A DNA stretch of 64,000 bases from an uncultured Bacillota bacterium. Its GTDB lineage: Bacteria > Bacillota_I > Bacilli_A > RFN20 > CAG-826. The notes below the pieces were generated by a model. It was not told the origin of the DNA. It made no database searches and was given only the letters and a program-made list of their open reading frames with translations. This document shows, piece by piece, positions 14,744 through 16,999 of the stretch (within the stretch, counting starts at the first letter, position 1; the number at the start of each line of letters is the position of its first letter). The stretch is from positions 12,590 through 76,589 of the forward strand of contig CASFDV010000001.1 in assembly GCA_949293555.1 (NCBI GenBank), given 5' to 3'. Both the position numbers and the translations under genes were made by a program.

Positions 14744-16999
14744 TTAGAAAAGACCCTTCTCCGCCACGGGAACGTAAGGGGACGGCCCTCCCGGGGCGAC
14801 GACGTCGACCTCGCCCCCCGCGGTCACGTTCCCGAAGGCCTCGCCCCAGCCCCCTTCGTAGTTCAGGTACTCGCGGAAGTCGTTGTAGTGGTTCCAGGTG
14901 TAGAACACCTTCCGGGCGGGAGCCTCGCTCTCCTCCCCGTCCGTATAGCGCATGTAGACGAGCCTCGCTCCCCCGCGGGTGATCGAGTAGCCGTCGTTAT
15001 AGGGCCTCACAGGATAGGAGGGACCCGTATAGGTACCCGTCGTCCCGACGTCGACCTCGTAGTAGTCGCTCCCCCCGCCGTCGATCCCGGAGATGTCCGG
15101 AAGGGCGGGCTCATAAGGGTAGCTTTCCTGGTCCCCGGAGAAGTAGGAGTTGTTGAGCCGGAGGTATTCGCCCCACTCGCTCGAGGAAGGGGAAGGGTAG
15201 TCGTAGCGGTCCTCCCAGTAGTTGGCAGGGACGTCCCCGAAGGCGAAGAGATAGGCGGCGACCTCCTCGAGGGTGATGTATCCCCCGCCTTCGAAGATCG
15301 TGAACGCCTCATTCCCCTGGCTGTCCTTCACCGTGTAGGCGAATCCTCCCTCGGAGAAGGAAAGTGAGGTGTTCTTCACGTAGAGCCCATCCTCCATCGG
15401 GCGCTCCTCGGAAAGCTCCGCGTACTGCCCCGGAACCTCGAGCGAGCCCGAGAGGAAGCCGTGCTTCGTGCGATAGTAGCTGTCCAGGAGGGTCCTCGCC
15501 GGCTCGTAGTCCTCGTAGAACTCCTCCGGGCTAACCCCGACGTAGGGATCGCCCGCGCCTTCCTCGGCGATGGAAAGGACGACGCTTTCGCCCCAGAGTC
15601 CCCGTTTCCCGCGGAGGCGCACCTGGATTGTCATGGAGCCGACCCTTTCCCCGGCGAGTGTCCCGCCTTCCAGAAGCTTCGCGGTCCCTTCACCGCTCAC
15701 GATTTCGTAGTCGAAGAGATAATCACCTTCCGCATCCTCGACGGACGGGAGGAGCCTCGTCTTCCCTCCCACGGGAATCTCCTCGTCCTCAAGGGCGAGC
15801 TTCGGCCGGGAGTTCCATCCAGGAAGCGCATGGAAGGTGTACTCCTCGCTATATAGGCTCCCGATCCTCACGCGGTAGGTCGCCGAGCCTTCCTTGCTAG
15901 GACGGACGGAGCAATCGGCCATATGCCCGGAGCCGAAGTCCTCTTCCACTTGGAAAAGGACGGCCTCGGGATCCCCTGCGAGGCATTCGACCTGGATGGA
16001 CCCCTTTGGGTCGTCCACGTCCGTCCAGAGGGAGAAGCCGTAGCCATACCCGTCCTGGAGGTTCATCCAGAGCCCGTCCTCGTCCCAGTCGCTTTCGTTA
16101 TAGGCGTTCACGAATCGGAGTTCGTAGGGGCGCCTCTCCCCTTCCTCCGCGGAGAGGAGACGGAGGGGCTGGACTTCGTATCCCCCCTCCTCGACTTCCG
16201 CGGAAACCTCGCATTCCCCAGAGGAAAGCGCGGATATTTCCTTTCCTTCCAAGGCGAAAGGCGTGGAGAACATGTCGAGGTTCCTGAGGGTCGGCTCCCA
16301 GTCCCCTTCATAAGGATCGCCCCAGCGGTCCATGAGGGAGAGCTCCCTTTTCTCCCCGGGACGGAAGTCCCCGTCCCCTCCTTCAAGGGAAAGATAGAGA
16401 GGCTCGAGGAAAAGGGTGCTTTCGATCGAAAGGACGTCCGTGACGGACCCGTCCTCCATCTCGGCGAAAAGGAGGATCTCCCCGGTCCCGTCCGCTTGGA
16501 GGGATGGGGTCCCGAACTCGTCCAGGGGGAAGGATGCCTCTGCGCTCCCAGGGAGAAGATGCAGCATCCCCTCCTCAAGGGCCAAGCGCTCGTCCCCGGG
16601 ACCATAGAGGGCGAGGGAGGCCCGCTCCCCTTCCATTAGGGAGATGGCGTCCGCCTCGAGGTAGTATCCGCTCCAGAGATCCTCGACGGAGAGGGAGAGG
16701 GAAACCCCGCTATTCGTCTCCTCCAGGAGGAAGCCCCCTTCCGCAATCCCCTGGACGAGGAGGGAGTCCTCCCCGACGTCGAGGATCCTCGCCCCCTTTC
16801 CCTCGATCTCGAAGGTAGGCTTCGCCCCGTTCCGGGGAAAGAAGAAGATCTCCCTTGTCTCCCCGATGTCGAGGACGCCGCCCTCGGTGACGAAGGAGAA
16901 CTCGTCCGCGGGCTCGGGCGGCACGAGGGGATCCCCCTGCTCCTCGCAGGAGGCAAGAAGGAAGAGAGATAGGAAAAGGGCAAGGAACGGTCTTCTCAT
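14744..16999 (-). CDS. acidic surface lipoprotein with Ig-like repeats and a C-terminal barnase/RNase T1-superfamily ribonuclease domain
   Basis: Lipobox LLASC. Repeated beta-rich (Big_2-like) modules. The C-terminal ~110 aa align to barnase: ITLEEVAAYLFAFGDVPANY (barnase DGVADYLQTYHKLPDNY), YYEVDV (WREADI, catalytic Glu), RGGARLVY (general-base Arg), FYTWNHYNDF (TTDHYQTF, catalytic His). Confidence 0.55.
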   Translation of the reverse strand: MRRPFLALFLSLFLLASCEEQGDPLVPPEPADEFSFVTEGGVLDIGETREIFFFPRNGAKPTFEIEGKGARILDVGEDSLLVQGIAEGGFLLEETNSGVSLSLSVEDLWSGYYLEADAISLMEGERASLALYGPGDERLALEEGMLHLLPGSAEASFPLDEFGTPSLQADGTGEILLFAEMEDGSVTDVLSIESTLFLEPLYLSLEGGDGDFRPGEKRELSLMDRWGDPYEGDWEPTLRNLDMFSTPFALEGKEISALSSGECEVSAEVEEGGYEVQPLRLLSAEEGERRPYELRFVNAYNESDWDEDGLWMNLQDGYGYGFSLWTDVDDPKGSIQVECLAGDPEAVLFQVEEDFGSGHMADCSVRPSKEGSATYRVRIGSLYSEEYTFHALPGWNSRPKLALEDEEIPVGGKTRLLPSVEDAEGDYLFDYEIVSGEGTAKLLEGGTLAGERVGSMTIQVRLRGKRGLWGESVVLSIAEEGAGDPYVGVSPEEFYEDYEPARTLLDSYYRTKHGFLSGSLEVPGQYAELSEERPMEDGLYVKNTSLSFSEGGFAYTVKDSQGNEAFTIFEGGGYITLEEVAAYLFAFGDVPANYWEDRYDYPSPSSSEWGEYLRLNNSYFSGDQESYPYEPALPDISGIDGGGSDYYEVDVGTTGTYTGPSYPVRPYNDGYSITRGGARLVYMRYTDGEESEAPARKVFYTWNHYNDFREYLNYEGGWGEAFGNVTAGGEVDVVAPGGPSPYVPVAEKGLF

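Follow-up and report, generated by a model that had tools for sequence, protein, structure and literature searches.

A candidate lipid-anchored ribonuclease with an enlarged barnase-type C-terminal module in an uncultured gut Bacillota bacterium

The 64-kb window studied here, the whole analysed stretch of 64,000 nucleotides from an uncultured Bacillota bacterium, encodes on its minus strand a 751-aa acidic lipoprotein that ends in a conserved unit of ~270 aa (residues 482-751), composed of a 92-aa subdomain, a barnase core that carries insertions, and a tail of 40 aa. We consider it probable that this protein is a catalytically competent barnase-fold endoribonuclease that is lipid-anchored and digests extracellular RNA for nucleotide and phosphate salvage. 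We infer its enzymatic activity and surface location from the sequence, and the nutritional role is suggested by the anchoring, the gene order and the salvage genes found near relatives elsewhere. An earlier note on this DNA, made from the sequence alone, had set three readings side by side, namely an exported nutritional RNase, a polymorphic-toxin-like effector and an inactive binding domain; the first is the best fit of the three. Barnase is among the best-studied enzymes, yet the family of lipid-anchored, enlarged relatives to which the 751-aa protein belongs is unannotated and had gone unnoticed. The gene and the parts of its product are as follows.

14744..16999, minus strand: RNase lipoprotein gene, 751 aa (ORF list; stop codon 14744-14746)
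16946..16999, minus strand: signal peptide and lipobox (MRRPFLALFLSLFLLAS-C18), read from the sequence
15557..16945, minus strand: N-terminal acidic all-beta region, residues 19-481, a putative lineage-specific stalk with degenerate Big_2-like Ig repeats
15611..15799, minus strand: best-supported Big_2-like Ig repeat, residues 401-463 (22.1 bits, iterated family Ig profile)
15281..15556, minus strand: N-terminal subdomain of the conserved module, residues 482-573, predicted as two helices and a three-stranded sheet
14867..15280, minus strand: barnase-like catalytic core with insertions, residues 574-711
15056..15058, minus strand: codon of E648, putative counterpart of the barnase general base E73 (81/81 homologs)
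14963..14977, minus strand: codons of R675 to R679 (TRGGAR), putative counterparts of barnase R83 and R87 (both 81/81 homologs)
14888..14890, minus strand: codon of H704, putative counterpart of the barnase general acid H102 (81/81 homologs)
14747..14866, minus strand: conserved C-terminal extension, residues 712-751, LNYEGGWGEAFGN... (pLDDT 93-97)

The earlier note had placed an acidic lipoprotein of 751 aa at these coordinates, and the reading frame, the lipobox and a pI of 4.08 all bear this out. The frame has a coding-type composition like that of the window's real genes (GC1/2/3 = 0.64/0.44/0.81), and the mature lipoprotein carries 142 D+E against 48 K+R. Its N terminus, MRRPFLALFLSLFLLASC, is a lipoprotein signal with the lipobox LLASC; on reading of the sequence, MRRPFLALFLSLFLLAS-C18 matches the pattern [LVI][ASTVI][GAS]C, and Cys18 is the predicted lipid-attachment site. 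Orthologs of the protein, at 94-96% identity, are each likewise 751 aa long. The cysteine is present at the matching alignment column in at least 90% of 52 family members, and 65 of 81 genomic homologs show the strict lipobox pattern, a count that rises to ~78 of 81 when the rest are inspected.

In the predicted model of the C-terminal module (pLDDT 90.6) the fold is barnase-like, with the N1/T1 superfamily arrangement of an N-terminal helix packed against an antiparallel sheet of 4-5 strands. The sequence also appears to provide the catalytic Glu/His pair and the phosphate-binding Arg of that superfamily. The three motif matches to barnase first noticed in the window protein, YYEVDV (E648), TRGGARLVY (R675 and R679) and WNHYNDF (H704), all hold, and the active-site E, R, R and H are invariant in 52/52 alignment members and in 81/81 genomic homologs. 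Equally invariant in the 81 homologs are the supporting active-site residues, an Asp (counterpart of D75), a Tyr (Y103) and a Phe (F106). An extra basic residue is Lys in 77/81 homologs and Arg in 4/81, and is R598 in the window protein; the position of barnase K27 itself is not conserved in the family, and the conserved K/R sits one position later. The register of the Glu and Arg residues relative to barnase comes from a manual alignment anchored on HMMER and hhalign matches, that of H704 from HMMER (to barnase H102) and hhalign (to the active-site His of RNase Sa), and that of helix 1 is supported by both programs. The fold search and the invariant catalytic residues thus uphold the proposed C-terminal barnase/RNase T1-like domain.

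These residues bear directly on whether the domain still works. The large insertions, the two extra conserved elements, the loss of the K27 position and a PF00545 score under the cut-off could all be read as signs of a catalytically dead barnase fold reused as an RNA-, nucleotide- or other ligand-binding surface module. RNase Sa, which has no equivalent of K27, is nevertheless active. Because the counterparts of barnase E73, D75, R83, R87 and H102 are invariant in 81/81 homologs, as are the Tyr and the Phe, an inactive domain is unlikely; such retention would be unexpected once catalysis had been lost. We therefore regard the binding-domain reading, the third of the earlier options, as highly improbable.

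Sequence-only methods remain below significance for the 751-aa protein itself. The earlier note had proposed a Pfam search and a structure prediction as checks; the latter returned the barnase-like model described above, and in the former PF00545 matched the full-length protein at E = 0.064 and 14.2 bits, below the cut-off of 24, while 50/52 family members matched the same model independently at E ≤ 1 (best E = 5.6e-5). PF00545 is in none of the precomputed domains of the homologs listed, and NCBIfam holds no model for the 751-aa protein. When the family profile was run against PDB sequences, barnase ranked top, at E = 0.26. No match was returned by phmmer with the whole protein against PDB sequences, and barnase had no meaningful BLASTP match to the C-terminal 180 aa. 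Foldseek against the PDB found no structure at E ≤ 0.001, with RNase Sa and Sa3 the only entries of non-trivial probability (0.30-0.35). In hhalign comparisons, the family profile gave short local matches to the single sequences of barnase and RNase Sa (24 and 11 columns, respectively), which may serve as register anchors and are not proof of homology.

Comparison with the known enzymes shows how far the module departs from them. Barnase, binase and balifase of Bacillus (N1/T1, PF00545) are free, basic, secreted proteins of ~110 aa that prefer guanyl sites and are paired with the inhibitor barstar, whereas the window protein has a predicted lipid anchor, is acidic (pI 4.1) and has no barstar gene nearby. 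Compared with barnase, its core has a replaced alpha2/alpha3 region, a longer recognition loop and an insert of ~12 residues before the Arg motif. The relation to barnase in the earlier note therefore stands, but the domain size of ~110 aa does not, as the core forms one part of a 270-aa module, together with a unique N-subdomain of 92 aa, for which there is no known relative, and a 40-aa C-extension. Invariant residues of the extension include G, W, G, F, G and N in the 52-member alignment, and its W718 (W237 of the module) is found in 81/81 homologs. RNase Sa, Sa2 and Sa3 of Streptomyces aureofaciens, at ~96 aa, are likewise soluble, secreted enzymes without a lipid anchor, stalk or extra subdomains.

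In contrast to the conserved module, the N-terminal 464 aa, taken whole, have only 4 homologs, all at least 94% identical, and as a whole this region is, by sequence, a lineage-specific orphan. The AlphaFold model of the N-terminal 462 aa is unreliable (pLDDT 38.8, from 5 near-identical sequences), and it predicts beta strands and no helices. Self-BLAST found no internal repeats here, and Pfam Big_2 (PF02368) did not match the 751-aa protein at E ≤ 1. However, an Ig-repeat HMM derived from the family, iterated on the N termini of relatives, scored 43.5 bits in total on the protein compared with at most 4.6 bits on shuffled sequences, and the consensus of this profile matched Pfam Big_2 at 38.4 bits (E = 1.2e-9). 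We propose that the region serves as a stalk.

The module defines a family of 439 clusters at 50% identity and ~1,660 at 90%. In the databases sampled, "hypothetical protein" is the sole name its members carry. Nearly all are lipoproteins of uncultured gut Bacilli and Clostridia and of mollicute-like lineages, often with reduced genomes, from humans and livestock, and the hosts include MAGs of Anaeroplasmataceae and Acholeplasmatales. The family architecture is a conserved C-terminal module behind variable N termini, with 48-66% identity in the module across diverse gut lineages. Each locus holds one copy, complete and C-terminal, and no plasmid copies of the family were found. Together with the lack of a conserved immunity-like neighbour described below, the single copy per locus, the variable N termini and the absence from plasmids suggest a housekeeping-like rather than toxin-like gene.

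The earlier note had also remarked on the absence of a barstar-like reading frame near the gene, and this observation holds well beyond the window. None of 10 plausible small genes scanned in the window matched PF01337. Searches of 13,101 six-frame ORFs from the window and 80 related loci with barstar itself, or with an HMM built from 78 barstar sequences, gave a best E of 0.68. A barstar-family ORF was absent from the 64-kb window and from the 10 kb around each of the 80 homologs, and among 139 small flanking ORFs there was neither a recurrent barstar nor a conserved immunity-like small neighbour. Thus, neither the window nor the 80 related loci show the adjacent PF01337 immunity gene of a barnase-barstar pair. 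Barnase and binase themselves have inhibitor genes at sites unlinked to their RNase genes (PMC5021464), so the local absence of barstar proves little and is less odd than the earlier note had made it.

The same findings weigh on the proposal that the protein is an antibacterial toxin, a surface barnase-like RNase delivered into competitors while an immunity protein from another part of the genome keeps its producer safe. Barnase-fold domains are common heads of polymorphic toxins, simple barnase-barstar pairs are widespread, and the Tox-Barnase heads, which occur with Imm-barstar, resemble the window protein in placing this catalytic fold at the C terminus of a larger exported protein (PMC3482391). 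The variable N-terminal regions could in principle be receptor-binding parts, and an unlinked inhibitor, as in the case of barnase, could exist here. However, polymorphic toxins combine conserved trafficking N termini and variable C-terminal heads with adjacent immunity genes and spare cassettes, none of which is seen here. The pattern is indeed the inverse, a conserved C-terminal enzyme behind an N terminus that varies. Within 10 kb, the 81 loci contain neither barstar nor any other small ORF that is conserved. In the window protein and the 52 members, Pfam recognised no trafficking domain, whether T6SS, T7SS, RHS, LXG or another, and an enzyme on a lipid anchor is poorly suited to being delivered into a different cell. 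The toxin reading, the second of the earlier options, is accordingly a poor fit, and we hold it to be quite unlikely.

How a producer of the proposed surface RNase would be spared is a separate matter: the enzyme may fold only after it has been exported, an inhibitor may be encoded at an unlinked site, or the extra subdomains may play a part. A broader idea, which is speculative and which we would not expect to hold, is that the family is a barstar-independent answer to the self-toxicity of barnase. In this scheme the 92-aa N-subdomain and the 40-aa C-extension, which are confined to the family, could gate folding or activity until export and lipid anchoring, or could enlarge the substrate site so as to take in structured RNA or oligonucleotides, and the module would be a self-contained, horizontally portable RNA-harvesting unit that has also become phage cargo beside a secreted protease. 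A disulfide between the semi-conserved family cysteines (ISGCGG and TDCDP) was considered as an export-dependent folding switch and rejected, as several members have one Cys and the window protein has neither. If the scavenging reading is correct, the family would provide a natural experiment on whether cells can safely make a barnase-type RNase that has no linked barstar.

In the mechanism we propose for scavenging, the protein would cross the cytoplasmic membrane through Sec, receive a lipid at Cys18 and remain fixed to the outer side of that membrane, with the ~460-aa acidic, beta-rich stalk and its degenerate Big_2 Ig repeats spacing the enzyme from the membrane. The 270-aa module would then cut RNA outside the cell as barnase does, by acid-base catalysis that needs no metal, with E648 as the base, H704 as the acid and the phosphate bound by R675, R679 and R598 (Lys in most relatives). 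The products would be expected to have 2',3'-cyclic or 3'-phosphate ends, and the RNA fragments would feed the nucleotide and phosphate salvage of this uncultured gut bacterium. As a precedent, phosphate starvation induces both binase and balifase (PMC5021464). The genes and elements that surround the RNase gene are as follows.

17044..18579, minus strand: upstream lipoprotein gene, probably 511 aa (MRKAWFLLLPLLALSSC...) (ORF list)
18649-18632: terminator-like hairpin, overlapped by the listed 541-aa ORF
18659-18734: tRNA-Ile, overlapped by the listed 541-aa ORF
11950..14685, minus strand: fused ABC ATPase-permease gene, 911 aa (PF00005, E = 2.8e-30)

The upstream lipoprotein gene ends 44 nt ahead of the RNase gene. 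Because the listed ORF overlaps the tRNA-Ile and the terminator-like hairpin, its start is probably at 18579, giving a protein of 511 aa and not the 541 aa of the earlier note. The product is acidic (pI 4.13) and has three Big_2-like repeats, with an Ig-profile score of 49.2 bits; it has no Pfam matches, and no solute-binding-protein family was recognised in it. The Ig repeats that the earlier note saw in both lipoproteins are Big_2-like at the profile level, but its view of the neighbour as a displaced paralog was not sustained, as the 751-aa protein and the 541-aa neighbour scored no better than E = 0.084 in a BLASTP comparison and a close paralogy was rejected. On the other side, the ABC gene is on the same strand and starts 58 nt past the RNase stop codon, the two may be co-transcribed, and the junction between them is kept in a related locus (L001).

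[quoted passage not shown] Membrane nucleases of Mycoplasma acquire nucleic-acid precursors (PMC12115388), and the products of MAG_5040-type genes, which have a second lipoprotein gene on one side and an ABC transporter gene on the other, are thought to supply these (PMC3585158, PMC12115388). By analogy, the window protein may do a job equivalent to that of the surface nuclease lipoproteins of mycoplasmas, the likeness to M. agalactiae MAG_5040, M. hyopneumoniae Mhp379, MnuA and others being one of function and gene order only. Those mollicute nucleases are surface lipoproteins of nutritionally dependent bacteria. The mollicute enzymes are metal-dependent SNase/TNASE_3 or EEP proteins that prefer DNA or are sugar-nonspecific, whereas the window protein has a predicted metal-independent barnase-type RNase fold, unrelated to theirs in structure and chemistry, and contains no Pfam SNase or Exo_endo_phos domain. 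If scavenging is its role, the case would be one of functional convergence with the mycoplasma surface nucleases by another fold. Some points count against scavenging. The ABC protein beside the RNase is more like exporters or mechanotransducers (MacB, FtsE, LolD) than like a classic importer, while that of the mycoplasma operon is a sugar-type importer; the NCBIfam models nearest to the window's ABC protein, none of which reaches its cut-off, describe bacteriocin-export, FtsE, DevA, LolD and MacB-type ATPases. In addition, barnase-type 3'-phosphates need extracellular processing or an oligonucleotide importer, neither of which was identified.

Salvage genes lie near the RNase gene in relatives, for which 70 loci with at least 3 kb downstream and 55 with at least 3 kb upstream were available. 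Within 3 kb of it, a SurE nucleotidase was found in 27 loci, a DHH/DHHA1 NrnA-like phosphoesterase in 34, ExoIII in 14, thymidine kinase in 13 and an HD phosphohydrolase in 10. These neighbours are mostly convergent and not co-oriented (SurE is on the opposite strand in 26/27), and the arrangement may be inherited synteny. None of the salvage genes seen in relatives flanks the RNase gene in the window, where a xanthine/uracil permease gene lies 8 kb away. If surface RNA scavenging is the true role, extracellular RNA would be a nutrient source of these hard-to-culture organisms, which would be useful for the design of culture media. A profile of the family would in any case improve the annotation of gut metagenomes.

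A surface RNase could instead, or in addition, act on the host or the community, by blunting RNA-triggered immune sensing, remodelling an RNA-containing biofilm matrix or benefiting a phage. The family is confined to animal-gut lineages, and the surface nucleases of Mycoplasma have also been described as virulence and immune-evasion factors (PMC12115388, PMC9740415). In a temperate-type gut phage lineage, moreover, a lipoprotein copy lies beside a secreted S8 protease, within the tail-gene cluster. Phage carriage is rare, however: one of 50,697 phage records has a copy, as do 2 of the 2.9 million viral contigs, and all belong to a single lineage. In addition, the salvage-gene neighbourhood of relatives points to metabolism. 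Sequence cannot tell such roles from scavenging, and the two are not mutually exclusive; we judge the host or community role unlikely and retain RNA scavenging as the preferred reading. BLASTP of the N-terminal region of the window protein against the Ig region of the phage protein gave E = 0.068, which is not significant. A prophage location of the window gene was considered and rejected, as tblastn with 12 phage proteins matched the RNase gene alone and the annotation around it shows tRNAs, transporters and DegV.

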